From Eledone cirrhosa (Eukaryota), in assembly GCA_964016885.1 (NCBI GenBank), contig OZ024742.1, positions 44,082,001 to 44,146,000 of the forward strand: 64,000 nucleotides of DNA. Direction: 5' to 3'. Below are positions 13,373-63,058 of this stretch, piece by piece; positions within the stretch are counted from its first letter, which is position 1, and each line of letters begins with the position of its first letter. A program made the position numbers and the translations under genes. Below the pieces are notes generated by a model that worked only from the letters and a program-made list of their open reading frames with translations, searched no databases and was not told where the DNA came from.

Positions 13373-13664
13373 TTCTTCCTCTATATCTCTTTCTCACTTT
13401 CTCTCTCTCCTTCTCTGGAAGACATTGGTCATATTCAGATAAGAAAAAGGGATGATCTTCAGGTTAAAAACAAAAATGTCCAAGAAACACACTGTCACTG
13501 CAGCACCCCTAAAACTCTACCAGGAATTACGGGTCCATACATCTAAACACTTCAAAATAGTTTTGTATAAAAAAAAAAACGAGGGAGGTTTCAGGTGGTT
13601 TAATATTTTAAACAGTTGAATATTTTTTTGTTTTCAAAATTATCTTTTTGTTTGTGTTTAACAG

Positions 13665-13745
13665 AAAATTGGAGGTGCATTGCGGGATCTGTTATCTCAT
13701 GTTGATCTGTTGCTGCCCACCTTCCATCTGGAAGACCAACATCTG
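13665..13745 (+). CDS. PTK2: Focal adhesion kinase exon, FAT helix 2 (KIGGALRDLLSHVDLLLPTFHLEDQHL)
   Basis: Aligns to human EVGLALRTLLATVDETIPLLPASTHRE. AACAG acceptor, CTG|GTAGGT donor, 81 nt, phase 0/0. Too short for the ORF track. Confidence 0.93.
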
Positions 13746-14009
13746 GTAGGTTATTTATTAAACATTTATTGGTTGTGTAGCACTGGTACTGCCAGTGATT
13801 TGTCTGTATATGATTGTTGTGTATGTGGGGGTAAATGTGATTGGTGTGTGTATATATAGTACAGGTATTGTCAATGGTGTGTGTAAGTGACGGTAACTAT
13901 GGCTGGTGTGTTGATGTACAGTAGTGGCATTGTGATTAGTATGTGTAACACTGAGATGTATTTGGAGTTTACTGTAGTTGGTGTGCGTGTGGAGTACTGG
14001 TACTGTTAG

Positions 14010-17000
14010 TCATGTATGTATGTGGAAGTAATTGTGATTGGTGTGCGTATATGTAGGGTGCTAGCATTGTGATTGGTTGGTGTGACACTGATATATGCGA
14101 AAGTCACTGTGATTTGTTTGTGTGACTGATGTTTGTATGTGGAAGTCACTGTGATTGGTTGATGTGACACATGTGTGTATGTGAGAGTCACTGTGATTGG
14201 TTGATGTGACACTGTGATGTTTGTTGTATGTGGAAGTCACTGTGATTGGTTGATGTGACACTGTCATGTTTGTATGTGGAAGTCACTGTGATTGGTTGAT
14301 GTGACACTGTCATGTGTGTATGTGGAAGTCACTGTGATTGGTTGATGTGCCACTGTCATGTGTGTATGTGAAAGTCACTGTGATTGGTTGATGTGACACT
14401 GTCATGTGTGTATGTGGAAGTCACTGATTGGTTGATGTGACACTGTCATGTTTGTATGTGGAAGTCATTGTGATTGGTTGATGTGACACTGTCATGTGTG
14501 TATGTGGAAGTCACTGTGATTGGTTGATGTGACACTTTCATGTTTGTATGTGGAAGTCACTGTGATTGGTTGATGTGACACTGTCATGTGTGTATGTGGA
14601 AGTCACTGTGATTGGTTGATGTGCCACTGTCATGTGTGTATGTGAAAGTCACTGTGATTGGTTGATGTGACACTGTCATGTGTGTATGTGGAAGTCACTG
14701 TGATTGGTTGATGTGACACTCATGTGTGTATGTGAAAGTCACTGTGATTGGTTGATGTGACACTGTCATGTGTGTATGTGGAAGTCACTGTGATTGGTTG
14801 ATGTGACACTGTCATGTTTGTATGTGGAAGTTACTGTGATTGGTTGATGTGACACTGTCATGTGTGTATGTGGAAGTCACTGTGATTGGTTGATGTGCCA
14901 CTGTCATGTGTGTATGTGAAAGTCACTGTGATTGGTTGATGTGACACTGTCATGTGTGTATGTGGAAGTCACTGTGATTGGTTGATGTGACACTGTCATG
15001 TTTGTATGTGGAAGTCATTGTGATTGGTTGATGTGACACTGTCATGTGTGTATGTGGAAGTCACTGTGATTGGTTGATGTGACACTGTCATGTTTGTATG
15101 TGGAAGTCACTGTGATTGGTTGATGTGCCACTGTCATGTGTGTATGTGGAAGTCATTGTGATTGGTTGATGTGACACTGTCATGTGTGTATGTGGAAGTC
15201 ACTGTGATTGGTTGATGTGACACTGTCATGTGTGTATGTGGAAGTCACTGTGATTGGTTGATGTGACACTCGTGTGTGTATGTGGAAGTCACTGTGATTG
15301 GTTGATGTGCCACTGTCATGTGTGTATGTGAAAGTCACTGTGATTGGTTGATGTGACACTGTCATGTGTGTATGTGGAAGTCACTGTGATTGGTTGATGT
15401 GACACTGTCATGTTTGTATGTGAAAGTCACTGTGATTGGTTGATGTGACACTGTCATGTGTGTATGTGAAAGTCACTGTGATTGGTTGATGTGCCACTGT
15501 CATGTGTGTATGTGAAAGTCACTGTGATTGGTTGATGTGACACTGTCATGTGTGTATGTGGAAGTCACTGTTATTGGTTGATGTGACACTGTCATGTGTG
15601 TATGTGGAAGTCACTGTGATTGGTTGATGTGACGCTGTCATGTGTGTATGTGGAAGTCATTGTGATTGGTTGATGTGACACTGTCATGTGTGTATGTGAA
15701 AGTCACTGTGATTGGTTGATGTGACGCTGTCATGTGTGTATGTGGAAGTCACTGTGATTGGTTGATGTGACACTATCATGTGTGTATGTGGAAGTCACTG
15801 TGATTGGTTGACGTGACACTGTCATGTGTGTATGTGAAAGTCACTGTGATTGGTTGATGTGACACTGTCATGTGTGTATGTGGAAGTCACTGTGATTGGT
15901 TGATGTGCCACTGTCATGTGTGTATGTGAAACTTACTGTGATTGGTTGATGTGACACTCATGTGTGTATGTGGAAGTCACTGTGATTGGTTGATGTGACA
16001 CTCATGTGTGTATGTGGAAGTCACTGTGATTGGTTGATGTGACACTGTCATGTGTGTATGTGAAAGTCACTGTGATTGGTTGATGTGACACTGTCATGTT
16101 TGTATGTGGAAGTCACTGTGATTGGTTGATGTGACACTGTCATGTGTATGTGGAAGTCACTGTGATTGGTTGATGTGACACTCATGTGTGTATGTGGAAG
16201 TCACTGTGATTGGTTGATGTGACACTCGTGTGTGTATGTGGAAGTCACTGTGATTGGTTGATGTGACACTCGTGTGTGTATGTGGAAGTCACTGTGATTG
16301 GTTGATGTGCCACTGTCATGTGTGTATGTGAAAGTCACTGTGATTGGTTGATGTGACACTCGTGTGTGTATGTGGAAGTCACTGTGATTGGTTGATGTGA
16401 CACTGTCATGTTTGTATGTGGAAGTCACTGTGATTGGTTGATGTGACACTGTCATGTGTGTATGTGGAAGTCACTGTGATTGGTTGATGTGACACTCGTG
16501 TGTGTATGTGGAAGTCACTGTGATTGGTTGATGTGCCACTGTCATGTGTGTATGTGAAAGTCACTGTGATTGGTTGATGTGACACTGTCATGTGTGTATG
16601 TGGAAGTCACTGTGATTGGTTGATGTGACACTGTCATGTTTGTATGTGGAAGTCACTGTGATTGGTTGATGTGACACTGTCATGTGTGTATGTGGAAGTC
16701 ACTGTGATTGGTTGATGTGACACTCGTGTGTGTATGTGGAAGTCACTGTGATTGGTTGATGTGACACTGTCATGTTTGTATGTGGAAGTCACTGTGATTG
16801 GTTGATGTGACACTCATGTGTGTATGTGGAAGTCACTGTGATTGGTTGATGTGACACTGTCATGTGTGTATGTGGAAGTCACTGTGATTGGTTGATGTGA
16901 CACTGTCATGTGTGTATGTGGAAGTCACTGTGATTGGTTGATGTGACACTGTCATGTGTGTATGTGGAAGTCACTGTGATTGGTTGATGTGACACTGTCA

Positions 17001-36659: not shown

Positions 36660-37450
36660 GGAAGGTGTTTGGAGCATATGGTAATATGCTTTGCATTATT
36701 TGTTTTGTTTATCTGAGTTCTTAAATGAAATCCTGCTCAACTCAACTATACCTTTTATCCTTTCAAGGTCAATAAAAGTACTAATCGAGGATAGTGTATT
36801 GGTTAAATTGTTCCTGTCAGATGAGATGCTTTGTAATATTTTTTCAATGCTTCGCATTCTGAGTTCAAATCTCACTGTGGTTAACTTTGCCTTTAATCCT
36901 TTTGAAATCAATAAAACATAGTACTAGTCAAGTACTGAGGTCAATTAGAAACCATTATTTAGAGCAGGCAGTATCGGTAGAGAGTCAGACGCCATGCTTT
37001 GGCGCAAAGAGTTACGGTCCTTTCCATTCTGAGTTCAAATCCCACCGAAGTTAACTTTGCCTTTCATCCTTACGGTGTCGATAAAATAAAGTACCAGTAA
37101 TACACTGGATAATTGCTGGCCTTGTGCCAAAAGTAGAAACAATTATTTAGAGCGGTGGATTAGCATTAGAAATCATTATTTTACGGGGTCGATAAAATAA
37201 AGTACCAGTAATGTACTGGGTAGTTGCTGACCTTGTGCCTAAAGTAGAAACAATTATTTAAGGCAGTGGAATGGCAGTATCGGGAGAGGGTCGGACGCCA
37301 TGCTTTGCAGCATAGTTACAGCCTTTTATGGTCTGATTTCAATCTGCCAAGGTTAACTTTGCCTTTCATCCTTACAGGGTCAATAAAATAAAGTACCAGT
37401 AATACACTGGGAAAATTGCTGGCCTTGTGCCAAAAGTAGAAACCATTATT
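36660..37450 (+). mobile_element. Head-to-tail chain of ~5 SINE family B copies/fragments
   Basis: Repeated CTGAGTTCAAAT...AACTTTGCCTTTCATCCTTAC.G.GTC.ATAAAATAAAGTACCAGTAAT...GGCCTTGTGCCAAAAGTAGAAAC.ATTATTT. Confidence 0.85.
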
Positions 37451-38457
37451 TAGAGCGGTGGATTAGCATTAGAAACCATTATTTAGAGTGGTGGATTAGC
37501 ATTAGAAACCATTATTTAGGGCGGGGGATTAGCATTAGAAACCATTATTTAGGGCGGGGGATTAGCATTAGAAACCATTATTTAGGGCGGGGGATTAGCA
37601 TTAGAAACCATTATTTAGGGCGGGGGATTAGCATTAGAAACCATTATTTAGGGCGGGGGATTAGCATTAGAAACCATTATTTAGGGCGGGGGATTAGCAT
37701 TAGAAACCATTATTTAGGGCGGGGGATTAGCATTAGAAACCATTATTTAGGGCGGGGGATTAGCATTAGAAACCATTATTTAGAGCGGGGGATTAGCATT
37801 AGAAACCATTATTTAGGGCGGGGGATTAGCATTAGAAACCATTATTTAGGGCGGGGGATTAGCATTAGAAACCATTATTTAGAGCGGTGGATTAGCATTA
37901 GAAACCATTATTTAGGGCGGGGGATTAGCATTAGAAACCATTATTTAGAGCGGTGGATTAGCATTAGAAATCATTATTTAGAGCGGTGCATTAGCATTAG
38001 AAACCATTATTTAGAGTGGTGGATTAGCATTAGAAACCATTATTTAGAGTGGTGGATTAGCATTAGAAACCATTATTTAGGGCGGGGGATTAGCATTAGA
38101 AACCATTATTTAGGGCGGTGGATTAGCATTAGAAACCATTATTTAGGGCGGGGGATTAGCATTAGAAACCATTATTTAGAGCGGTGGATTAGCATTAGAA
38201 ATCATTATTTAGAGCGGTGCATTAGCATTAGAAACCATTATTTAGGGCGGGGGATTAGCATTAGAAACCATTATTTAGAGTGTTGGATTAGCATTAGAAA
38301 CCATTATTTAGTGCGGTGGATTAGCATTAGAAATTATTTAGAGCGGTGGATTAACATTAGAAATGATTATTTAGGGCGGGGGATTAGCATTAGAAATCAT
38401 TATTTAGGGCGGGGGATTAGCATTAGAAATCATTATTTAGAGCGGTGTATTAGCATT
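37436..38457 (+). repeat. 33-bp satellite, block 1
   Basis: Unit ATTAGCATTAGAAACCATTATTTAGGGCGGGGG, about 31 copies. Confidence 0.98.
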
Positions 38458-39672
38458 CATCATCATCGTTTAACGTCCCTGTTCCACGCTTGCATGGGTT
38501 TGGATGGGGGTTTTCCCACTTGAGGCAAGAGTGGTTGTCTTGCTCGCATAGGACTGTCTGGCGGGTTTTCTACAGCTGGATGCCCTTCCTAACACCAACC
38601 ACATTTACAGTGTGGGACTGTGAGGTTTTTACCGGTCACATTACAGCGTGGACTGTGTGTTTTTTGTCGTGACACCTACACGATCTCGTTTGTTTCGGCC
38701 TGGATGTTGTGGCACCAACATCACTTTGCATTGAAGGGGGTGGTGTGGATGGGGTGGGACGGGGGTGTATTTTGTTAGAGATGCCTACTGACTAGTAGGT
38801 TTTACTTTGTATTTAGGTGAGGCTGGTCTTCTTTGTTACTGAGTACCGCCAAAGGTCTCGGTCCAGTGACATTGTCTTGGAGAGGTGTAAGTGTGTGAGG
38901 TCGGAATTTATCAGTTCGTCCCAGGTTTTCCTGGGTCTGCCTACTCCATGGCTACCATCTATCTTTATTGCTCTGCACTTTGTAATACAGCTATCGACTT
39001 TCATGCGCATCACGTGTCCTCTTATTTCTAATTTTTTCCTTAGTTCGTTTATGCTTTGCCGTTCACGTATATTACTATTACACATCCAGCGGAGCATGCA
39101 AGCTTCATTCCTCTCTAGTCTGCGTATATCCTCTGCACACAATGCCCAGGTCTCACTGCCATGCAACATTGCTGTTCGTATGCAGGCATCATACAACCTG
39201 CCTTTCATTTTTAGGGAGAACCCTTTAGCGGCTAATAGTGGTATAAGCTCTCTGAACTTTTTCCATCCAGTTCTGACTCTAGCTACTGTACTTTCAGAAC
39301 ACCCTCCCCCACTGCTGATTTTGTCACCCAGGTAATGGAAGCTGTCCACTATTTCCATAGAACCCTCTGCGCAATTGAAAGAGTTAGTGTTTTGTGGGCA
39401 CTTGCTGCTACTTATTGCACCAGAGCACCGGCCACATGTAAAATCTGTGTTCTTAGTTAGCTTACCTGTGATCCCACTACATCTTTTATGCACCCATACT
39501 TTGCATTTGGGACATAAAATGGAGTTTCTACCTACGCCTTTTCTACACACTGAGCATGGCCATTTCCCGGAGGGGACCGCCGCCTTATTTTCTTTCTTAC
39601 AAACTAGAACTTTAGTCTTAGCCAGGTTAATTTTAAGGCCTTTTGATTCTAGGCCGTGCTTCCATGTTTGGA
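38458..39672 (-). mobile_element. RTE LINE, 5'-truncated copy A (~1.2 kb)
   Basis: Homologous to 41600-43000. It has a (CAT)n tail on the + strand and an in-frame 42-bp deletion near 39018. Confidence 0.95.
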
Positions 39673-39845
39673 TTAGCATTAGAAACCATTGTTTAGAGCG
39701 GTGTATTAGCATTAGAAATCATTATTTAGAGCGGGGGATTAACATTAGAAATCATTATTTAGGGCAAAGGATTAGCATTAGAAATCATTATTTAGGGCGG
39801 TGTATTAACATTAGAATTTATTATTTAGAGCGGGGGATTAGCATT
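39673..39845 (+). repeat. 33-bp satellite, block 2
   Basis: About 5 units between RTE copies A and B. Confidence 0.95.
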
Positions 39846-40579
39846 CATCATCATCATCATCATCATCAACGTTTAACGTCCGTGTTCCATGCTTGCATGG
39901 GTTTGGACGGGGGTAGTCCCACTTGAGGCAAGAGTGATTGTCTTGCTCGCATAGGACTGTCTGGCAGATTTTCTACAGTTGGATGCCCTTCCTAACACCA
40001 ACCACATTTACAGTGTGGGGCTGGGAGGTTTTTACCGTGTTGCCTACACGGCCACATTACAGCGTGGACTGTGTGTTTTTTTGTCGTGACACCTACACGA
40101 TCTCATTTGTTTCGGCCTGGATGGTGTGGCACCAACATAACTTTACATAGAACGGGGTGGTGTGGATGGGGTGGGGGTGGTGGCGGGACGGGGTGTAGTT
40201 TGTTAGAGATGCCTACTGGCAAGGCGGGTCTTCTCTGTTACTGAGTACCGCCAAAGGTCACGGTCCAGTGACATTGTCTTGGAGAGGTGTAAGTGTGTGA
40301 GGTCGGAATTTATCAGCTCGTCCCATGTTTTTCTAGGTCTGCCTATTCCGTGGCTACCGTCTATCTTTATTGCCCTGCACTTCGTAATACAGCTATCGAC
40401 TTTCATGCGCATCACGTGTCCATACCAACGCAGCCTTCTCTCGAGTAAACAACATCTGATCCCTCTTATCTCTAATTTTTTCCTTAGTTCGTTTATGCTT
40501 TGCCGTTCACGTATATTACTGTTACACATCCAGCGGAGCATGCAAGCTTCGTTCCTCTCTAGTCTGCGTATATCCTCTG
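39846..40579 (-). mobile_element. RTE LINE, 5'-truncated copy B (~0.73 kb)
   Basis: ORF 40203-40541 matches the RTE C-terminus ([13 protein letters not shown]...GRPRKTW). The 3' UTR and (CAT)n tail are present. Confidence 0.95.
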
Positions 40580-41599
40580 AGAAATCATTATTTAGAGCGG
40601 TGGATTAACATTAGAAATCATTATTTAGAGCAGTGGATTAGCATTAGAAATCATTATTCAGAGCGGTGGATTAACATTAGAAATCATTATTTAGAGCGGT
40701 GGATTAGCATTAGAAATCATTATTTAGAGCGGTGGATTAGCATTAGAAATCATTTAGAGCGGTGGATTAGCATTAGAAACCATTGTTTAGAGCGGTGTAT
40801 TAGCATTAGAAATCATTATTTAGAGCGGGGGATTAACATTAGAAATCATTATTTAGGGCAAAGGATTAGCATTAGAAATCATTATTTAGGGCGGTGTATT
40901 AACATTAGAAATTATTATTTAGAGCGGGGGATTAACATTAGAAATCATTATTTAGGGCGGGGGGTTAGCATTAGAAATCATTATTTAGAGCGGTGGATTA
41001 ACATTAGAAATCATTATTTAGAGCAGTGGATTAGCATTAGAAATCATTATTTAGAGCGGTGGATTAACATTAGAAATCATTATTTAGAGCGGTGGATTAG
41101 CATTAGAAATCATTATTTAGAGCGGTGGATTAGCATTAGAAACCATTATTTAGAGCGGTGTATTAGCATTAGAAATCATTATTTAGAGCGGTGGATTAGC
41201 ATTAGAAATCATTATTTAGAGCGGTGGATTAGCATTAGAAATCATTATTTAGAGCGGTGGATTAGCATTAGAAACCATTATTTAGAGCGGTGTATTAACA
41301 TTAGAAATCATTATTTAGAGCGGGGGATTAACATTAGAAGTCATTATTTAGGGCGAGGGATTAGCATTAGAAATCATTATTTAGGGCGGTGTATTAACAT
41401 TAGAAATCATTACTTAGAGCGGGGGATTAACATTAGAAATCATTGTTTAGGGCGAGGGATTAGCATTAGAAATCATTATTTAGAGCGGGGGATTAACATT
41501 AGAAATCATTATTTAGGGCGAGGGATTAGCATTAGAAATCATTATTTAGGGCGGTGTATTAACATTAGAAATCATTATTTAGAGCGGGGTATTAACATT
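40580..41599 (+). repeat. 33-bp satellite, block 3
   Basis: About 31 units, dominated by AAATCATT and ATTAACATT variants. Confidence 0.97.
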
Positions 41600-44500
41600 C
41601 ATCATCATCATCATCAGGTTTAGCGTCCGTGTTCCACGCTTGCATGGGTTTGGACGGGGGTTTTCCCACTTGAGGCAAGAGTGGTTGTCTTGCTCGCATA
41701 AGACTGTCTGGCAGGTTTTCTACAGTTGGATGCCCTTCCTAACACCAACCACAGTTACAGTGTGGGGCTGGGAGGTTTTTACCGTGTTGCCTACACGGCC
41801 ACATTACAGCGTGGACTGTCTGGCGGGTTTTCTACAGTTGGATGCCCTTCCTAACACCAACCACAGTTACAGTGTGGGGCTGGGAGGTTTTTACCGTGTT
41901 GCCTACACGGCCACATTTACAGCGTGGACTGTGTGTTTTTTTGTCATGACACCTACACGATCTCATTTGTTTCGGCTTGGATGTTGTGGGACCAACATAA
42001 CTTTACATTGAAAGGGGCGGTGTGGATGGGGTGGAGGTGGTGGGACGGGGGTGTATTTTGATAGAGATGTACTGACTGTAGTAGGTTTTTACTTTGTATT
42101 TAGGTAAGGCGGGTCTTCTCTATTACTGAGTACCGCCAAAGGTCTCGGTCCAGTGACATTGTCTTGGAGTGGTGTAAGCGTGTGAGGTCGGAATTTATCA
42201 GCTCGTCCCAGGTTTTTCTGGGTCTGCCTACTCCGTGGCTACCGTCTATCTTTATTGCCCTGCACTTTGTTATACCGCTGTCGTCTTTCATGCGCATCAC
42301 GTGACCGTACCAACGTAGCCTTCTCTCGAGTAAACAACATCTGATCCCTCTTATTTCTAATTTTTTCCTTAGTTCGTTTATGCTTTGCCGTTCACGTATA
42401 TTACTATTGCACATCCAGCGGAGCATGCAAGCTTCGTTCCTCTCTAGTCTGCGTATATCTTCTGCACACAATGCCCAGGTCTCACTGCCATGCAGCATTG
42501 CTGTTCGTATGCAGGCATCGTATAACCTGCCTTTCATTTTTAGGGAGAACCCTCTAGCGGCTAATAGTGGTATAAGCTCTCTGAACTTTTTCCATCCAGT
42601 TCTGACTCTAGCTACTGTACTTTCAGAGCACCCTCCCCCACTGCTGATTTTGTCACCCAGGTAACGGAAGCTGTCCACTATTTCTATAGAACCCTCTGCG
42701 CAGTTGAAGGAGCTAGTATTTTGTGGGCACTTGCTGCTACTTATTGCACCAGAGCACCGGCCACATGTAAAATCTATGTTCTTAGTTAGCTTACCTGTGA
42801 TCCCACTACATCTTTTATGCACCCATACTTTGCATTTGGGACATAAAATGGAGTTTCTACCTACGCCTTTCCTACACACTGAGCATGGCCATTTCCCAGA
42901 TGGGACCGCCGCCTTATTTTCTTTCCTACAAACTAGAACTTTAGTCTTAGCCAGGTTAATTTTAAGGCCTTTTGATTCTAGGCCGTGCTTCCATGTTTGG
43001 AATTTCTTCTCTAGTTCGGTCATTGATTCAGCTATGAGCGTTAGATCATCTGCGTATAGGAGTTCCCATGGGCAGCCGGTCTTGAACTCCTCTGTTATAG
43101 CCTGGAGGGCAATAATAAATAGTAGGGGGCTAAGGACAGAGCCCTGATGGACACCAACTTTTACGCTAAACTCTTCACTATATTCGTTGTTAATTCTAAC
43201 CTTACTGACTGTTTCTTTATACATGACTTGTATAGCTCTCACAAGCCATTCGTCAACACCTAGTTTTCTAAGAGACCACCAGATAATGGAACGGGGGACT
43301 CTGTCGAAGGCTTTCTCCAAGTCGACGAAAGCTAAGTATAGGGGTTTACTTTTAGCTAGGTACTTCTCCTGTAGTTGTCGTACAATGAAAAGAGCGTCTG
43401 TGGTACTTTTGCCTGACACAAACCCGAACTGTATTTCATCTAGATCAATTCTCTCTCTGATTAGTTGCGCTATTACTTTTTCCGTGACCTTCATGACCTA
43501 GTCGATTAATTTAATGCCTCTATAGTTACTCCTATCTAGGGCATCTCCTTTTCCCTTATAGCAGTTAACGATGATGCTGCTACGCCAGTCCTTCGGAACA
43601 ACCCCATTCTGTACGACTTGGTTAACTATCCGGGTGACCATGGTGTGTCCCACCGAACCAGATGCCTTCAGCATCTCAGCAACTATTTCCGAAGGACCAG
43701 CCGCCTTACCCGTCTTCATATCTTTGATTGCCTTGCTTATTGTACTACCCTGGACTAACACTGCTGGTCCCTCTATTGGGTCAATGTGGGGGAGACTGTC
43801 TTTCTCCCATTTGTTCTCCTCATTTAGAAGCCTTTCGTAGTGACACTTCCAAGCTACCTTCTTATCAGCGTCGGTGATGGCAAGTATGCCATCATCGTTA
43901 AGTACACACTTCTCCCCGACAATATCACGGTTTTCCTTGACACATTGCCTGGCAATCCTGAACACCTCACGTTTTTGGTCCTCACGTTGTAGAACATGCT
44001 TGAACTTTCTTTCCTCTGCTTCCCTTCTTGCGAAGTACACTTGTCTCCTAGCTTCCCTCCTGGCCACTTGATAGTCTTCTCTACTTCCCCCATCCCGCCA
44101 TACTTTCCAAGCCTGCTTTTTGGCCTTAATTGACTCCTCCACCTTACTGTTCCACCACCATGTTACTCTCCTCCTACCTACAGGCCTGCTCCAGCCACAG
44201 ACTTCGTCTGCCGCCGTCAGCAGGTTTGCTCTCAGGAATTCCCACTGTTCCTCTATATTATACGACTCTAATTGCTCTTCCTTACTGTCGAAAGCGTCAA
44301 GTAACATGCTTTGAAATTTATTTCTGGCTATGGGGTCCTTTAGCTTCCATATTTTTCTCCTGAGGATAGTCCTCTTCCGCTGTCTAGTACGTCTCGTCCT
44401 GACTATGAGGTCGCTAATTATCAGTCTATGTTGGGAGGTGCATTCTTCATGGGGGAGGGATTTAGTGTTTACAACAGACACTCTGTCACGTCTTCTGGTA

Positions 44501-45910
44501 AGGATATAATCTACCTGGCTTGTGTGTTCCCCGGATCTATAGGTGATCAGGTGGTTGTCACGTTTTTTGAAGTTAGTGTTACAGATAGTTAGGTTATTTG
44601 CATCACAGAATTCCAGGATTCTGGAGCCTTCCTCATTTCTAGTACCGAACCCATAGCCTCCATGGATTCCGTCATAGCCGTCACAATGTTGTCCAACGTG
44701 ACCATTTAGGTCGCCTGCAATAACTATATAGTCACTGTCGGTTATTTGGGAGGTAGCGAGCATCAGTGTATCGTAGAATCTGTCTTTTATAGCGCCGGGC
44801 AGTCCGGATTGGGGTGCGTACGCAGATATTACTGTCACCGTAGTTTTATTGAGGACAAGTCTTATTTTAATTATTCTGTCGTTCACTCTATTTACGTCTA
44901 TTATCTTATTTGCCCACTTTTCTGCTACCATGATTCCTACCCCACCCAACCCATTGTCATTTCCCACCCAGAAAAGCTTATAGCATCGTTCTTTACCCAC
45001 GATGAATCTAGCCGACCCTCCCCTCCACCTGGTCTCTTGAATACAACAAACATCGACCTCCTTACGTTCAAGCATTTCTACAACCTCGTTAGAGCGACCC
45101 TTTAAGGTGCCTACATTCATGGTACCAACTCTGAAGTTTTGGATTGCGTTTGGAGGGTGGGAGCGGTGGGGGGGGGGGGGGTTATGTTAGCCATCCTGGG
45201 CCGAAACAAGGAGGAGTGCTTGCATTCTCGTCCACGAGGTGAATTTGGCTTTATCTTTGGCATTGTCGCTGAGCATCCACATTTTTCTCTCTTCAACTCT
45301 CCAGAATTCCGTAGTCCATCCATCATATCGAAAAGCAACCAGTTAAGCGATAGTATGGGCCTCTGACTTATGATTGCTCCACGTAATAATGGTGGTGTGT
45401 GGGGGCGGGTGGGAGGGATGATGGGTTGTTAGCGAGAATGTAAGGTTTAAGATAAGATCGCCGTATTTTGGGCATATTTTAACAATAAACGAAAATACAA
45501 GATTTGTTTTGTTTAAGAAAATACGATAGAGAAAATGCGGTGATAGGGAAAATATGATTTTTAGAGAAAAAATATGATATAGAATGGTGAAAATATGATA
45601 TAGTGTGAAATTAGGACATAGAATAGTGATTGAATGAATGGATTCGAATGGAGAGAAGAATCGAGAAAAATATTTGAACGTTACTTTATACCGAAGGAAC
45701 AGCCATCCCAGAAGTAGCGAGTTGGCGATTTTGATTAATTTTGGTAGGGTTTATCTTATATGTATAGAGAGGGAGGGGGGGGCAGGAACCAGCATGATGT
45801 ATGGGTAGGGGGTAGAAGATGAGATGGAGCAGAGGTTAAGAGTTTAAATAGGTACTCGAAGTTTTGCGTAAAACTTAGCAAGTTTAACAAAATATATTTA
45901 AAGGAATATA
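41600..45910 (-). mobile_element. Near-full-length RTE-clade LINE, copy C (~4.3 kb)
   Basis: Contains a 5' UTR, APE endonuclease, RT, RTE C-terminal motifs, a ~500-bp 3' UTR and an (ATG)n tail. Satellite units bound it on both sides. Confidence 0.96.
42100..45140 (-). pseudogene. RTE ORF (APE endonuclease + reverse transcriptase + PHD-like finger) split by an in-frame TAG at 43498-43500
   Basis: EN motifs RVGTMNVGTL, CIQETR, SAYAP, GDLNGHVG, VDYIL, SQHR. RT motifs NYRGI, QFGF, AFVDLEKAFDRV, GVHQGSVLSPLLF, YADD, FRYLG. ORFs 43498-45120 and 42100-43494 are in one frame (KLID*VMKV). Confidence 0.95.
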
Positions 45911-48900
45911 TAGAAATCATTATTTAGGGCGAGGGATTAGCATTAGAAATCATTATTTAGGGCGAGGGATTAGCATTAGAAATCATTATTTAGAGCGGGG
46001 GATTAACATTAGAAATCATTATTTAGGGCGAGGGATTAGCATTAGAAATCATTATTTAGAGCGAGGGATTAGCATTAGAAATCATTATTTAGGGCGAGGG
46101 ATTAGCATTAGAAATCATTATTTAGGGTGAGGGATTAGCATTAGAAATCATTATTTAGGGCGAGGGATTAGCATTAGAAACCATTATTTAGGGCGAGGGA
46201 TTAGCATTAGAAATCATTATTTAGGGCGAGGGATTAGCGTTAGAAACCATTATTTAGGGCGAGGGATTAGCATTAGAAACCATTATTTAGGGCGGTGGAT
46301 TAGCATTAGAAACCATTATTTAGGGCGAGGGATTAGCATTAGAAACCATTATTTAGGGCGGTGGATTAGCATTAGAAACCATTATTTAGAGCGGTGGATT
46401 AGCATTAGAAACCATTATTTAGGGCGAGGGATTAGCATTAGAAACCATTATTTAGAGCGGTGGATTAGCATTAGAAACCATTATTTAGGGCGAGGGATTA
46501 GCATTAGAAACCATTATTTAGAGCGGTGTATTAGCATTAGAAACCATTATTTAGGGCGAGGGATTAGCATTAGAAACCATTATTTAGGGCGAGGGATTAG
46601 CATTAGAAACCATTATTTAGGGCGAGGGATTAGCATTAGAAACCATTATTTAGGGCGAGGGATTAGCATTAGAAATCATTATTTAGGGCGAGGGATTAAC
46701 ATTAGAAATCATTATTTAGACCGGTGGATTAGCATTAGAAACCATTATTTAGGGCGAGGGATTAGCATTAGAAACCATTATTTAGGGCGAGGGATTAACA
46801 TTAGAAATCATTATTTAGACCGGTGGATTAGCATTAGAAACCATTATTTAGGGCGAGGGATTAGCATTAGAAACCATTATTTAGGGCAAGGGATTAGCAT
46901 TAGAAACCATTATTTAGGGCGAGGGATTAGCATTAGAAACCATTATTTAGAGAGGTGTATTAGCATTAGAAACCATTATTTAGGGCGAGGGATTAGCATT
47001 AGAAACCATTATTTAGAGCGGGGGATTAGCATTAGAAACCATTATTTAGGGCGAGGGATTAACATTAGAAACCATTATTTAGGGTGAGGGATTAGCATTA
47101 GAAATCATTATTTAGGGCGAGGGATTAACATTAGAAATCATTATTTAGGGCGGTGGATTAGCATTAGAAACCATTATTTAGGGCGAGGGATTAGCATTAG
47201 AAACCATTATTTAGGGCGGTGGATTAGCATTAGAAACCATTATTTAGGGCGAGGGATTAGCATTAGAAACCATTATTTAGGGCGGTGGATTAGCATTAGA
47301 AACCATTATTTAGGGCGAGGGATTAGCATTAGAAACCATTATTTAGGGCGAGGGATTAGCATTAGAAACCATTATTTAGGGCGAGGGATTAGCATTAGAA
47401 ACCATTATTTAGGGCGAGGGATTAGCATTAGAAACCATTATTTAGGGCGGTGGATTAGCATTAGAAACCATTATTTAGGGCGAGGGATTAGCATTAGAAA
47501 CCATTATTTAGGGCGAGGGATTAGCATTAGAAACCATTATTTAGGGCGGTGGATTAGCATTAGAAACCATTATTTAGGGCGAGGGATTAGCATTAGAAAC
47601 CATTATTTAGGGCGAGGGATTAGCATTAGAAACCATTATTTAGGGCGGTGGATTAGCATTAGAAACCATTATTTAGGGCGAGGGATTAGCATTAGAAACC
47701 ATTATTTAGGGCGGTGGATTAGCATTAGAAACCATTATTTAGGGCGAGGGATTAGCATTAGAAACCATTATTTAGGGCGGTGGATTAGCATTAGAAACCA
47801 TTATTTAGGGCGAGGGATTAGCATTAGAAACCATTATTTAGGGCGAGGGATTAGCATTAGAAACCATTATTTAGGGCGAGGGATTAGCATTAGAAACCAT
47901 TATTTAGGGCGAGGGATTAGCATTAGAAACCATTATTTAGGGCGGTGGATTAGCATTAGAAACCATTATTTAGGGTGAGGGATTAGCATTAGAAACCATT
48001 ATTTAGGGCGAGGGATTAGCATTAGAAACCATTATTTAGGGCGAGGGATTAGCATTAGAAACCATTATTTAGGGCGGTGGATTAGCATTAGAAACCATTA
48101 TTTAGGGCGAGGGATTAGCATTAGAAACCATTATTTAGGGCGAGGGATTAGCATTAGAAACCATTATTTAGGGCAAGGGATTAGCATTAGAAACCATTAT
48201 TTAGGGCAAGGGATTAGCATTAGAAACCATTATTTAGGGCGAGGGATTAGCATTAGAAACCATTATTTAGGGCGAGGGATTAGCATTAGAAACCATTATT
48301 TAGGGCGAGGGATTAGCATTAGAAACCATTATTTAGGGCGAGGGATTAGCATTAGAAATCATTATTTAGGGCGAGGGATTAACATTAGAAATCATTATTT
48401 AGGGCGGTGGATTAGCATTAGAAACCATTATTTAGGGCGAGGGATTAGCATTAGAAACCATTATTTAGGGCGAGGGATTAACATTAGAAATCATTATTTA
48501 GACCGGTGGATTAGCATTAGAAACCATTATTTAGGGCGAGGGATTAGCATTAGAAACCATTATTTAGAGCGGGGGATTAGCATTAGAAACCATTATTTAG
48601 GGCGAGGGATTAACATTAGAAACCATTATTTAGGGTGATGCATTAGCATTAGAAATCATTATTTAGGGCGAGGGATTAACATTAGAAATCATTATTTAGG
48701 GCGGTGGATTAGCATTAGAAACCATTATTTAGGGCGAGGGATTAGCATTAGAAACCATTATTTAGGGCGAGGGATTAACATTAGAAATCATTATTTAGAG
48801 CGGTGGATTAGCATTAGAAACCATTATTTAGGGCGAGGGATTAGCATTAGAAACCATTATTTAGGGCAAGGGATTAGCATTAGAAACCATTATTTAGGGC

Positions 48901-50996
48901 GAGGGATTAGCATTAGAAACCATTATTTAGGGCGAGGGATTAGCATTAGAAACCATTATTTAGGGCGGTGGATTAGCATTAGAAACCATTATTTAGGGCG
49001 AGGGATTAGCATTAGAAACCATTATTTAGGGCGAGGGATTAGCATTAGAAACCATTATTTAGGGCGAGGGATTAGCATTAGAAACCATTATTTAGGGCGA
49101 GGGATTAGCATTAGAAACCATTATTTAGGGCGGTGGATTAGCATTAGAAACCATTATTTAGGGCGAGGGATTAGCATTAGAAACCATTATTTAGGGCGAG
49201 GGATTAGCATTAGAAACCATTATTTAGGGCGAGGGATTAGCATTAGAAACCATTATTTAGGGCGGTGGATTAGCATTAGAAACCATTATTTAGGGCGGTG
49301 GATTAGCATTAGAAACCATTATTTAGGGCGGTGGATTAGCATTAGAAACCATTATTTAGGGCGGTGGATTAGCATTAGAAACCATTATTTAGGGCGAGGG
49401 ATTAGCATTAGAAACCATTATTTAGGGCGGTGGATTAGCATTAGAAACCATTATTTAGGGCGAGGGATTAGCATTAGAAACCATTATTTAGGGCGAGGGA
49501 TTAGCATTAGAAACCATTATTTAGGGCGGTGGATTAGCATTAGAAACCATTATTTAGGGCGGTGGATTAGCATTAGAAACCATTATTTAGGGCGGTGGAT
49601 TAGCATTAGAAACCATTATTTAGGGCGAGGGATTAGCATTAGAAACCATTATTTAGGGCGGTGGATTAGCATTAGAAACCATTATTTAGGGCGAGGGATT
49701 AGCATTAGAAACCATTATTTAGGGCGGTGGATTAGCATTAGAAACCATTATTTAGGGCGAGGGATTAGCATTAGAAACCATTATTTAGGGCGGTGGATTA
49801 GCATTAGAAACCATTATTTAGGGCGAGGGATTAGCATTAGAAACCATTATTTAGGGCGGTGGATTAGCATTAGAAACCATTATTTAGGGCGAGGGATTAG
49901 CATTAGAAACCATTATTTAGGGCGAGGGATTAGCATTAGAAACCATTATTTAGGGCGAGGGATTAGCATTAGAAACCATTATTTAGGGCGGTGGATTAGC
50001 ATTAGAAACCATTATTTAGGGCGAGGGATTAGCATTAGAAACCATTATTTAGGGCGAGGGATTAGCATTAGAAACCATTATTTAGGGCGAGGGATTAGCA
50101 TTAGAAACCATTATTTAGGGCGGTGGATTAGCATTAGAAACCATTATTTAGGGCGAGGGATTAGCATTAGAAACCATTATTTAGGGCAAGGGATTAGCAT
50201 TAGAAACCATTATTTAGGGCGAGGGATTAGCATTAGAAACCATTATTTAGGGCGAGGGATTAGCATTAGAAACCATTATTTAGGGCAAGGGATTAGCATT
50301 AGAAACCATTATTTAGGGCGAGGGATTAGCATTAGAAACCATTATTTAGGGCAAGGGATTAGCATTAGAAACCATTATTTAGGGCGAGGGATTAGCATTA
50401 GAAACCATTATTTAGGGCGAGGGATTAGCATTAGAAACCATTATTTAGGGCGAGGGATTAGCATTAGAAACCATTATTTAGGGCGGTGGATTAGCATTAG
50501 AAACCATTATTTAGGGCAAGGGATTAGCATTAGAACCATTATTTAGGGCGAGGGATTAGCATTAGAAACCATTATTTAGGGCAAGGGATTAGCATTAGAA
50601 ACCATTATTTAGGGCGAGGGATTAGCATTAGAAACCATTATTTAGGGCGAGGGATTAGCATTAGAAACCATTATTTAGGGCGAGGGATTAGCATTAGAAA
50701 CCATTATTTAGGGCGGTGGATTAGCATTAGAAACCATTATTTAGGGCGAGGGATTAGCATTAGAAACCATTATTTAGGGCGAGGGATTAGCATTAGAAAC
50801 CATTATTTAGGGCGAGGGATTAGCATTAGAAACCATTATTTAGGGCGGTGGATTAGCATTAGAAACCATTATTTAGGGCGAGGGATTAGCATTAGAAACC
50901 ATTATTTAGGGCAAGGGATTAGCATTAGAAACCATTATTTAGGGCGAGGGATTAGCATTAGAAACCATTATTTAGGGCGAGGGATTAGCATTAGAA
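45911..50996 (+). repeat. 33-bp satellite, block 4 (~5.1 kb, roughly 154 units)
   Basis: Unit ATTAGCATTAGAAACCATTATTTAGGGCGAGGG with GGGCGGTGG and GGGCAAGGG variants. Confidence 0.99.
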
Positions 50997-51637
50997 CGTC
51001 TGACAAAATGCTTTGTGGCATTTAGTTGCAGCCCTTTACATTCTGAGTTCAAATCCTGTTGAGGTGAACTTTGCCTTTCATCCTTTTGGTGTTCATAAAA
51101 TAATCTACCAGTTAAATACTAGAGTCTGTTTGATTTATTCCTTTCCACTAAACTACAGAGTTTGAAACAATTACTGTTATTGTTAGGGGCTATAGATTGA
51201 CAGTATCTGTAGAGCGTCGAACAATATGCTTTGCGGCATATAGTTACAGCCCTTTACATTCTGAGTTCAAATCCCTGCCAAGGTTAGCTTTGCCTTTCAT
51301 CCTTATGGGGTCAATGAAATAAAGGACTGGTAATACACAGAGGTCAATTTAATCGACTTGCCCCTCCCCCCAAAAAAATATTGTTGACCTAAATCAGGAA
51401 CTATTATTGTTGTTGAGGGTGGTGGATTGGCAGTATCAGTAGAGCGTCAGACACCATGTTTTGCAGCATAGGGTTAAATCTCTTTATGTTATGATTTCAA
51501 ATCCCACCGGAGTTAGCTTTGCCTTTCATCCTTACAGGGTCGATAAAATAAAAAACAAGTAATGCACTGGGGTCGATTTAATTGACTTCCCCCTCTCCCC
51601 AAATTACTGGCTTTGTGTCTGTAGTAGAAATCATTAT
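50975..51637 (+). mobile_element. Chain of three SINE family B copies
   Basis: The last satellite unit runs directly into TTAGAACGTCTGACAAAATGCTTTG. Three GCCTTTCATCCTT cores follow, and the last tail abuts the FAK acceptor. Confidence 0.85.
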
Positions 51638-51670
51638 TATTGTTGTTATATTTTTTTTTATTATTTTCAG

Positions 51671-51895
51671 GTGTCTTCCTCTCAGAAAGTGCTAAGTAGT
51701 GACATGGCGTCACTAGTTGAAGCTATGAAAGTTGCTCAGCAGTACAACCTTGCCATGGAAGCTGAGTATCTGAAACGTATGCTTAAAGCTGCCCACACTC
51801 TAGCTATGGACTCTAAAAACTTGCTTGATACAGTCGACGTGACCCGCTTAAAATACAAACTTGTGCTGCAAATAGACGGCATTAAAACTACCTGA
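51671..51895 (+). CDS. PTK2: Focal adhesion kinase terminal coding exon, FAT helices 3-4 (VSSSQKVLSSDMASLVEAMKVAQQY...AAHTLAMDSKNLLDTVDVTRLK...*)
   Basis: Aligns to human IEMAQKLLNSDLGELINKMKLAQQY...MLTAAHALAVDAKNLLDVIDQARLK. TTTTCAG acceptor, TGA stop. Confidence 0.96.
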   Translation: MSSSQKVLSSDMASLVEAMKVAQQYNLAMEAEYLKRMLKAAHTLAMDSKNLLDTVDVTRLKYKLVLQIDGIKTT

Positions 51896-58801: not shown

Positions 58802-59688
58802 TCACACTGTAAAATGGTTGATGATAGGAAGGGCATTCAGCTGTAGAAAGTTTGGGAGGACCCTTCAGTTGTGCCAAAAACATGACAACCTCTCTAGTGC
58901 TGGGACCACAATAAAATAGACTTGGTAAAAAACAGAACCATATGTGATATGCCAACCCCCTGCTTGTCTGGGAGGTCAGAAGCCTCGCTTCAGTACAGAC
59001 TTGGTCTGTGAAGATCCATCCAACCCTCGCTAGCAGGGAAATTGGACAGTAAATGATGCTGATACATATATTCATTGATTTTCAATAATATCACTTGGAT
59101 AAAAACTTTGTAAATGATTTTAAAAGACAAAAAGGAAGTTGGTTTTTGTATGTTTTTGTTATTTCACATGCATAACTAGATGCTACAGACAAAGCATTCT
59201 CATTCTATATATATATGTATGATATATATTGTACTTTGTATGACTAAAGAAGGAGCCCTTGAAATTTCTAATTTCTCTCAAAAAGCAAGCATATTTGCAT
59301 ATGTATTTATTTCTTCATAATATTAATCAAGTTTGTGGTACTGACAGTTTCATTAATCATTTCACCCCTGGTTTACACCTTTTAGACAAACGTTGAATTA
59401 ATTATTGAAACTGTCTGTACCAAAACTTCAATCTCATGAAGAAATAAATAAATACATACATAAGTCTATATCATTAAACAATGAGATATATATATATATT
59501 ATTATAGTATATAATACCTAGCAGTCGGGCTTAAACTGTCCTGGTAGCAAACTTTTCCTATCAGCGATTTAAGCTTGACCATTGGGCATTATATCCTATT
59601 ATATCTTCACTCTATTTTCCTTAAGTCTGGTGTACTAAGTTAATGGTCTTACTGGTCTTAACTAGAAACATCTTATCCATATATATAA

Positions 59689-60599: not shown

Positions 60600-60925
60600 A
60601 TGTTGCTTCATCCCATGCACATAAGAGGGTCTTCTGCTGTACTGCATAACACCATAGATCTCAATCCTCTGTCATTGCCTTTGAAAAGTGTGTCAGGTCA
60701 GCTTTTGTCACCTCATTCCAAGCTTTCATAGGTGTTCCTACTCCATAGCTTCCATCAACTTTGAGGGCTCTGCACCTTTTTATACAACTGTCATCCTTCA
60801 TACACATCCCATGTCCAAACCACCTCAATCTCCTCTCCTGCACACTGAAGCTGATTCCTCTTATGCCAAGTTCCTCAGCTCATTTGCGCTTTGCCGTTCA
60901 TGTATATTACTATAACACATGCATC
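60600..60925 (-). mobile_element. Older diverged RTE fragment related to copy C
   Basis: QERRLRWFGHGMCMKDDSCIKRCRALKVDGSYGVGTPMKAW is similar to the C-terminus of the 42100-43494 ORF. Confidence 0.85.
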
Positions 60926-60949
60926 GGAGCATGTATGTATGTATGTATA

Positions 60950-61170
60950 TCATCATCATCATTTAGCATCCATTTTCCATACTAGCATGGGTTAGACAAG
61001 TTGTCCTATTATGAGACAAATCAGATCAGATGACTGTGTCTTGCTCATACAGAACTGTTTCTGGCTGGATGCCCCTCCTAATGCTAACCACATGTACAAT
61101 GTGGACTGGGTGACTTTTGTTGTGGCACCAAAATGATCACTTTACAGTGTAGGCTGGGCACTTTTTGTCA
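60950..61170 (-). mobile_element. Short element with RTE-type 3' tail
   Basis: (CAT)n TTAGCATCCATTTTCCATACTAGCATGGGTT ... GGCTGGATGCCCCTCCTAATGC. Similar remnants lie at ~210-310, 2500-2545, 3110-3270, 4920-5050, 9940-10190, 53800-54110, 58800-59065, 59718-59845 and 61575-61780. Confidence 0.7.
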
Positions 61171-61969: not shown

Positions 61970-62302
61970 TTCATCATTTCATTTTACGTCCACTTTTCCC
62001 TGCTTGCAAGGGTGGGACGGGAACTGATTCTGGCTAGATTTCTACAGCTGGATGCCCTTCCTAACACCAACCTCATTTACAGTGAGTGCTGGGTGCTTTT
62101 TTGCCGTGGCACCTCCATGACCACTTTGCAGTGGAATGATATGGACCCCAGTCCCTATCATCTCATTTCTACAGCTGAGTAAACTGGAGCAATGTGAAAT
62201 AAAGTGTCTTGCTCAAGGAAACAACACATCACCCAGTCTGAGAATTGAACTCACAACCTTTCGATTGCAAGGCCAATTCTCTAACCACTAAGCCATGTGC
62301 CT

Positions 62303-62447: not shown

Positions 62448-63058
62448 TACGTTGGTATGGTCACGTGATGCGCATGAAAGACGACAGCTGTATAACAAAG
62501 TGCAGGGCAATAAAGATAGATGGTAGCCACGGAGTAGGCAGACCCAGAAAAACCTGGGACGAGCTGATAAATTCCGACCTCACACACTTACACCTCTCCA
62601 AGACAATGTCACTGGACCGAGACCTTTGGCGGTACTCAGTAATAGAGAAGACCCGCCTTACCTAAATACAAAGTAAAACCTACTACAGCCAGTAGGCATC
62701 TCTAACAAAAGACACCCCCGCCCCGCCACCCCCACACCATCCACACCGCCCCTTTCAATGTAAAGTTGTGTTGGTGCCGCAACATCCAGGCCGAAACAAA
62801 TGAGGTCGTGTAAGTGGTGTCACGACAAAAAAACACACAGTCCACACTGTAATGTGGCCATGTAGGCAACACGGTAAAAACCTCCCAGACCCACACTGTA
62901 AATGTGGTTGGTGTTAGGAAGGGCATCCAGCCGTAGAAAACCCGCCAGACAGTCCTATGCGAGCAATGACAACCACTCTTGTCTCAAGTGGGAAAACTCC
63001 TGTCCAAACCCATGCAAGCGTGGAAGATGGATGTTAAACGATGACGACGATGATGATG
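62448..63058 (+). mobile_element. RTE LINE, 5'-truncated copy D, in TA microsatellite
   Basis: [18 protein letters not shown]...SVIEKTRLT* plus 3' UTR and (GAT)n tail, nearly identical to copies A-C. Confidence 0.95.

Follow-up and report, generated by a model that had tools for sequence, protein, structure and literature searches.

SART/TRAS elements are site-specific long interspersed nuclear elements (LINEs) of the apurinic/apyrimidinic endonuclease (APE) type, which insert at a fixed nucleotide of repeat targets. PMC6007223 and PMC4640811 name R1 and Tx1 as the only site-specific APE clades. The RTE clade of LINEs, together with short interspersed nuclear elements (SINEs), has a looser signature, Tn-TA, in which the nick falls at a T|A step and a run of T on the sense strand lies about 10 nt upstream (PMC6007223, PMC13295347). 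The RTE tail has been proposed to select or to prime the site, the junction base matching the tail (PMC6007223); whether it selects the nick or merely primes is left open in the relevant sections of PMC6007223 and PMC13295347. We analysed a window of 64,000 nucleotides from Eledone cirrhosa (contig OZ024742.1, positions 44,082,001 to 44,146,000), in which three RTE copies, denoted A, B and C, interrupt a 33-bp minisatellite at the same nucleotide of the unit. The original prediction for this locus had started from the premise that RTE elements are non-specific, overlooking that PMC6007223 had already described a Tn-TA signature and a model of tail pairing, and had proposed that this element prefers the satellite. 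The three copies are likely to be separate target-primed insertions, placed at one register by the ordinary nicking and priming preference of an element that does not seek out the array.

Three RTE copies in a 33-bp minisatellite

Copies A (38458..39672), B (39846..40579) and C (41600..45910) all lie on the minus strand. The 3′ (tail) junctions of A (38457/8) and B (39845/6) read ATTAGCATT|CAT and that of C (41599/600) reads ATTAACATT|CAT; the consensus join is ATTARCATT|CATCAT in one orientation, and reading the junctions thus bears out the shared nucleotide and orientation first noticed. On the other side the array resumes with TTAGCATT at 39673 beyond A (ATTAGCATT begins at 39672, one base from the figure given earlier), with AGAAATCATT at 40580 beyond B and with TAGAAATCATT at 45911 beyond C. 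The copies are 1215, 734 and 4311 bp long and their 5′ junctions are of different types. Copy A, the oldest, is 5′-truncated, carries private deletions and has a target site duplication (TSD) of 8–9 bp. Copy B, also 5′-truncated and of a different subfamily from A, is blunt, with no TSD. Copy C (4.3 kb) belongs to a third subfamily, has a 112-bp tandem duplication in its 3′ untranslated region (UTR), and is truncated within its 5′ UTR at a TA microhomology; dispersed copies extend further. For copy A the TSD, predicted at 9 bp, was recovered and the TGGA microhomology was not, as the left-flanking unit reads GTGTATT and, of TGGA, just the final base truly matches.

The nearest dispersed relatives of each copy amounted to 87 loci, 44 of which were long enough for a tree; with A, B, C and a fourth copy in the window, D, the alignment comprised 48 copies and 736 columns. 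Over the shared region the pairwise identity of A, B and C is 93.8–94.3%, and all three carry private indels, in agreement with the several percent of divergence originally reported. Identity to the nearest dispersed copies is 97.5% for A, 98.6% for B and 98.6% for C (to L017). In the tree A, B and C are each nested with their own dispersed subfamily, and approximately unbiased (AU) tests reject a clade of all three (p=4.8e-35) as well as the pairs BC (7.9e-6), AC (9e-8) and AB (6.7e-8). The diagnostic columns match the copy's own subfamily along its length (65/70 for A, 39/46 for B and 70/73 for C). These results, together with the differing 5′ junctions and an insert-free unit order near B, exclude simple duplication, and by these sequence comparisons A, B and C are three independent insertions. 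Copy A contains a short B-type patch at 38990–39030, beside its 42-bp deletion. All of the dispersed carriers of this patch are B-type (20/20), which suggests a conversion tract, from the neighbouring copy B or from another B-type copy. That the satellite was carried along by 3′ transduction, from a donor within the array, was considered and rejected, since B and C stem from dispersed subfamilies without satellite.

The 33-bp array spans 37437–50996 and is divided by the three copies into four segments, given here on the plus strand. S1 (37437..38457) has 31 units, of which those adjoining A are variant and those at the far end homogeneous; S2 (39673..39845) has 5.3 units and S3 (40580..41599) has 31; S4 (45911..50996) has 154 units, is mostly homogeneous and contains no insertion. 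The insertions are limited to the heterogeneous core of the array. A block at 40775..41137 (plus strand) repeats the succession of units that surrounds B (u15 u16 u17 u18 ... u20 u21) with no insert, and is apparently an empty copy of B's site. A 31-base pattern of the unit matches the 3.0-Gb genome 168 times, always on one strand, and the window gives the same number of matches, 168, so the 33-mer is a single-locus minisatellite. Units of the array are found in read sets X8 and X9, which come from a single sample and possibly from the individual that was assembled. Among the contigs and reads listed from sequencing runs none bridged a junction, the matches being dominated by the thousands of other RTE copies, and RAD runs hardly covered the array. 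In the unit a SINE tail (AGAAAC-ATTATT) runs into a SINE head (GGGCGGTGGATT-GCA), as in dispersed SINE copies, and the array has a strong GC skew of about +0.39, with a G-rich plus strand.

Register-locking in a second satellite and target choice genome-wide

An 18-bp satellite at G000:C1 7.24–9.59 Mb (about 2.3 Mb, with 4/4 spot checks of 10 kb almost wholly array) displays the same behaviour. The position-ordered list contains 40 family matches in 2.14 Mb of this array, about 19 per Mb compared with 4.7 genome-wide, and many of the RTE loci in the array (L172–L211, L326–L335, L340–L343) are 99–100% identical to dispersed copies. The 40 matches reduce to 35 on removal of three duplicates, of L177, which was mis-fetched and has the same junction in an exact-pattern scan, and of L178, which lies in a different repeat. 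Thirty-four of these 35 join at GAYAT|A in one orientation, the remaining one being ambiguous. Aligned to C, they show 30 distinct 5′ end points (imprecise for the longest), and they interleave with dispersed copies on a tree, with 17 changes against a shuffled mean of 21.6; the sampled copies are mostly independent insertions, alongside a few duplicated ones (L185–L187, L191–L192, L205–L206). The exact junction pattern, which fixes the register by design, occurs in 59 cases genome-wide, all within 7.24–9.59 Mb. The site used is a textbook one: the nick is preceded by CAT or TAT and followed by A, with AAA at +9. As a second, unrelated satellite is locked in the same way, register-locking is a general behaviour of the family, and copies gather at one register in further repeats that offer a usable site.

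Outside the arrays the main target of the family is (TA)n, which holds about three quarters of the sampled copies. TA tracts host 53 of the 72 retained near relatives and, among 85 position-ordered copies, 40 of the 50 that lie outside the 18-bp satellite (the other 35 are in it). Copy D (62448..63058, plus strand), which has the opposite orientation and groups with none of A, B and C, is indeed in a TA tract, as originally noted. Copies often occupy a TA tract beside an earlier RTE copy (L336–L337 at G000:C1 11.449–11.466 Mb, L081, L137, L148, L158, L159), either tail to tail or nested, and the interval on G000:C1 holds at least 8 pieces in 17 kb.

At 121 unselected junctions outside the 18-bp satellite the base before CAT is T in 108, and AT precedes it in 95. 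Pairing of the junction with the (AUG)n tail, as predicted, is thus plausible. The preference for CATT itself is mild: CATT accounts for 237 of 2,332 TT|CAT junctions, 10.2% compared with a background of about 6%. A strong genome-wide CATT preference was accordingly rejected. Dispersed sites have an A-run at +9 to +11. This was seen in 41 non-repeat sites with both ends available, part of them selected for TT or CATT, after 19 others had been removed by hand (element continuing, nested, tail variants or other tandem repeats); AAA starts at +7 to +11 past the nick in 17/41, compared with 26/205 control windows (p=5e-5), which agrees with the Tn-TA signature of PMC6007223. All 41 sites have a TSD of 0–8 bp, with none in 14, 1 bp in 8 and 7–8 bp in 3, a variety similar to that among the 5′ junctions of A, B and C.

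The 33-mer itself is the flank of 0/87 dispersed near relatives; with a single-locus target and most copies in TA tracts, the proposed preference for the satellite is not supported. The SINE tail site homologous to the 33-mer site has 0 insertions genome-wide. A different SINE site, with CATT and an A-run at +9, contains 10 (CAT)n-tailed insertions of mixed families, about 3 with the family's broad 3′ end and the others from sister families or unclear; the homologous, empty site is three times commoner than this occupied one (41 vs 13 in 0.94 Mb). The downstream AGAAAC context was considered as a hot spot and rejected, with 0 matches.

Explanations of the shared register

In the mechanism that we favour, the element's endonuclease would nick the plus strand at the T|A step of CATT|AGAAA, and the 3′ end so released (...CATT) would pair with the (AUG)n RNA tail through its terminal T, possibly with a bulged CAT. 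The 5′ truncation and the short or missing TSD usual for the family would follow, and the insertions would have taken place at different times, A first. Because the best site recurs once in every unit of a tandem array, separate hits are likely to share register and orientation; in the 33-mer unit this site would be T33 rather than T27.

A crude site model was trained on dispersed sites; its ranks are rough, as the training sets numbered 41 and 28 and had in part been selected for TT or CATT junctions. The 18-mer site is ranked first with a share of 0.53, whereas its observed share is near 1, indicating that the real preferences are sharper than the model. Several observations speak against the proposed mechanism. 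The used 33-mer site is ranked only 9th of 66 (share 0.036). On the same strand, 6 nt upstream of it, lies a textbook Tn-TA site, GGATT|AGCATTAGAAA, which is ranked 5th and was left unused. TT precedes CAT in only 6 of the 121 unselected junctions, making TT|CAT a minority, and the CATT enrichment is a mere 1.6-fold or so, with tail variants counted in. At 3 per ~221 units the density is roughly 30-fold that in the 18-mer array, where it is 59 per ~130,000 units, although the patterns are not strictly comparable, and local sequence exchange probably occurs, given the B-type patch in A. The used 33-mer site has no T-run at −10. As to chance, the probability that three draws share one of 66 sites is about 0.005 under the crude site model. 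The Poisson probability of at least 3 copies in 7.3 kb is 7e-6 to 8e-5, which corresponds to 3–31 such stretches expected per genome. Copies cluster beyond Poisson, with 11/58 gaps below 7.5 kb where 3.2 are expected, and five same-strand copies lie in about 10 kb at C1:11.449–11.466 Mb. The high local density is in part ordinary clustering and in part ascertainment, the window having been flagged for this coincidence.

The original prediction had named duplication of one insertion as a real alternative, and block duplication is indeed seen in the array: the units around B recur in the same order at 40775–41137, those left of B and C are similar, as had been observed, and the 18-mer array contains the duplicated insertions listed above. 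A single insertion duplicated with the array and later shortened by deletions is nevertheless hardly credible, as A, B and C are mutually 94% identical compared with 97.5–98.6% to dispersed copies, no clade of them, pair or trio, survives the AU tests, and there are three distinct 5′ junction structures. A more elaborate version, in which cDNA or gene conversion derived from younger subfamilies later replaced the duplicates but left the old tail junction in place, would explain why the junction is identical and sub-optimal without the site having been chosen repeatedly; a (CAT)n tail already in place would be expected to pair perfectly with new RNA, and the B-type patch in A suggests that exchange probably occurs. 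We consider it very unlikely, since B and C have no A-type remnant at their 5′ ends and lack A's TSD on their right, C is longer than A, and an apparently empty B site lies 200 bp away (which unit recombination could also produce).

True specificity for the 33-mer, in the manner of SART/TRAS, R1 or Tx1, would fit the three of three insertions at one nucleotide, the density far over the genome mean and a site that the general model does not predict. Such specificity is highly improbable for a family of at least 14,136 copies with a single-locus target, given also the unoccupied homologous SINE tail site, the 5 kb of S4 without an insertion and the clusters of at least 5 copies in about 10 kb that occur in TA-rich DNA as well. 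Finally, the insertions could be independent and yet directed by a lesion or structure of the array (a slippage loop, R-loop or repair break) which exposes a 3′ end at T33, a local hot spot partly independent of endonuclease preference. The high density per unit, the non-canonical site, the lack of a clear TSD in two of the three insertions, the GC skew with a G-rich plus strand in a transcribed intron, and the confinement of insertions to the heterogeneous core are all in keeping with this idea, which we still hold to be improbable, as insertions without TSD are common in the family (14/41) and T|A is its usual nick.

Within the favoured account of independent, target-primed insertions, the RNA tail might also help to choose the nick or priming site and override the Tn-TA spacing. 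The textbook site was skipped three times for a CATT 6 nt away, and a CATT end may pair with AUG through a one-base bulge; this addition is on the whole doubtful. If it were true, this choice, the TA-tract bias and the 18-mer array would jointly suggest an RTE moving toward RNA-assisted, repeat-directed integration, with satellites as natural target-site assays. The 18-mer array, with its dozens of young insertions, and the 33-mer array, with its off-model site, are both substrates for the question of whether the tail selects the nick or only primes, and the former is the better test system of the two. In any case, nearly all independent array insertions are at one nucleotide, and RTE site choice is far sharper than genome-wide logos imply. 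Insertions at the same site of an array prove by themselves neither a site-specific element nor a duplication.

The element, its host intron and described relatives

Copy C has a long single frame (42100..45186, minus strand) encoding an APE-type endonuclease (EN), a reverse transcriptase (RT) and a PHD finger. The Pfam domains Exo_endo_phos and RVT_1 share this frame, which one stop interrupts at 43498–43500; no credible open reading frame (ORF) for a separate ORF1 is present upstream within C, which is truncated in its 5′ UTR. The PHD finger lies downstream of the RT (42100–43497), a layout that recurs in many marine-invertebrate homologs; RT+PHD homologs from cnidarian and lancelet records have no clade name attached. 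The 3′ end is an (ATG)n microsatellite tail in A–D and in dispersed copies, preceded by an ordinary 3′ UTR of about 400–500 nt. Counted by exact 3′-end patterns, the narrow family has at least 14,136 copies genome-wide, or 32,154 including sister families. Older pieces of sister (CAT)n-tailed families, with partial sharing of the 3′ UTR (69–85% identity), are present in the window at 814–916, 58803–58849, 60627–60960 and 62029–62131. Elsewhere, at G000:C2 362.29–362.32 Mb (L230, L231, L235–L237), many near-identical 5′ UTR pieces lie within about 30 kb, one of them joining a SINE end; this cluster is probably a segmental tandem duplication.

The intron that holds the array is about 38 kb long and belongs to a focal-adhesion-kinase-like gene, with Focal_AT matches at both ends. 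The likely middle FAT-domain exon (approximately 13660..13750, plus strand, by motif match) precedes the intron, and the last FAT-domain exon (51671..51895, plus strand, start approximate) ends it. The same intron contains a 46-bp satellite at 14094–36640 (22.5 kb, about 95% homogeneous) with no RTE insertion, and the two arrays together occupy about 36 kb of the 38 kb. Tandem SINE copies flank the 33-mer array on both sides (36940–37470 and 51000–51640). The 33-mer unit is apparently the tail-head junction of such SINEs minus the SINE body, and a 111-bp intermediate repeat is found at 37070–37270.

The mechanism class proposed here is already published. Searches of the open-access literature listed no report of RTE insertions locked to one register of a satellite, or of a cephalopod RTE directed to TA tracts. 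The family has the RTE-clade features of a single EN+RT ORF, a short 3′ UTR ending in a microsatellite and the Tn-TA signature. As in the Tn-TA RTEs described in PMC6007223 and PMC13295347, it combines an APE endonuclease and a microsatellite 3′ tail with a presumed T|A nick and a junction base matching the tail. It differs from them in its TSDs, mostly of 0–8 bp compared with the 7–15 bp reported there, in having about three quarters of its copies in (TA)n, in the register lock within arrays, and in a 33-mer site that lacks the T-run. The RTE-2_OV element of Octopus vulgaris, compared by its description in PMC9115989, likewise has a single EN+RT ORF, a zinc-binding domain and a high copy number; its domain is a C2H2 finger and its 3′ UTR is mostly microsatellite, whereas here a PHD finger follows the RT and the 3′ UTR is ordinary. 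Like R1 and Tx1 elements, the family inserts at one nucleotide and in one orientation of the repeat unit (3/3 in the 33-mer and 34/35 in the 18-mer). Those elements are largely confined to their target, with most copies in one multicopy sequence, whereas only 3 of the at least 14,136 copies of this family are in the single-locus 33-mer; it is dispersed through the genome and takes up a fixed register in unrelated repeats.

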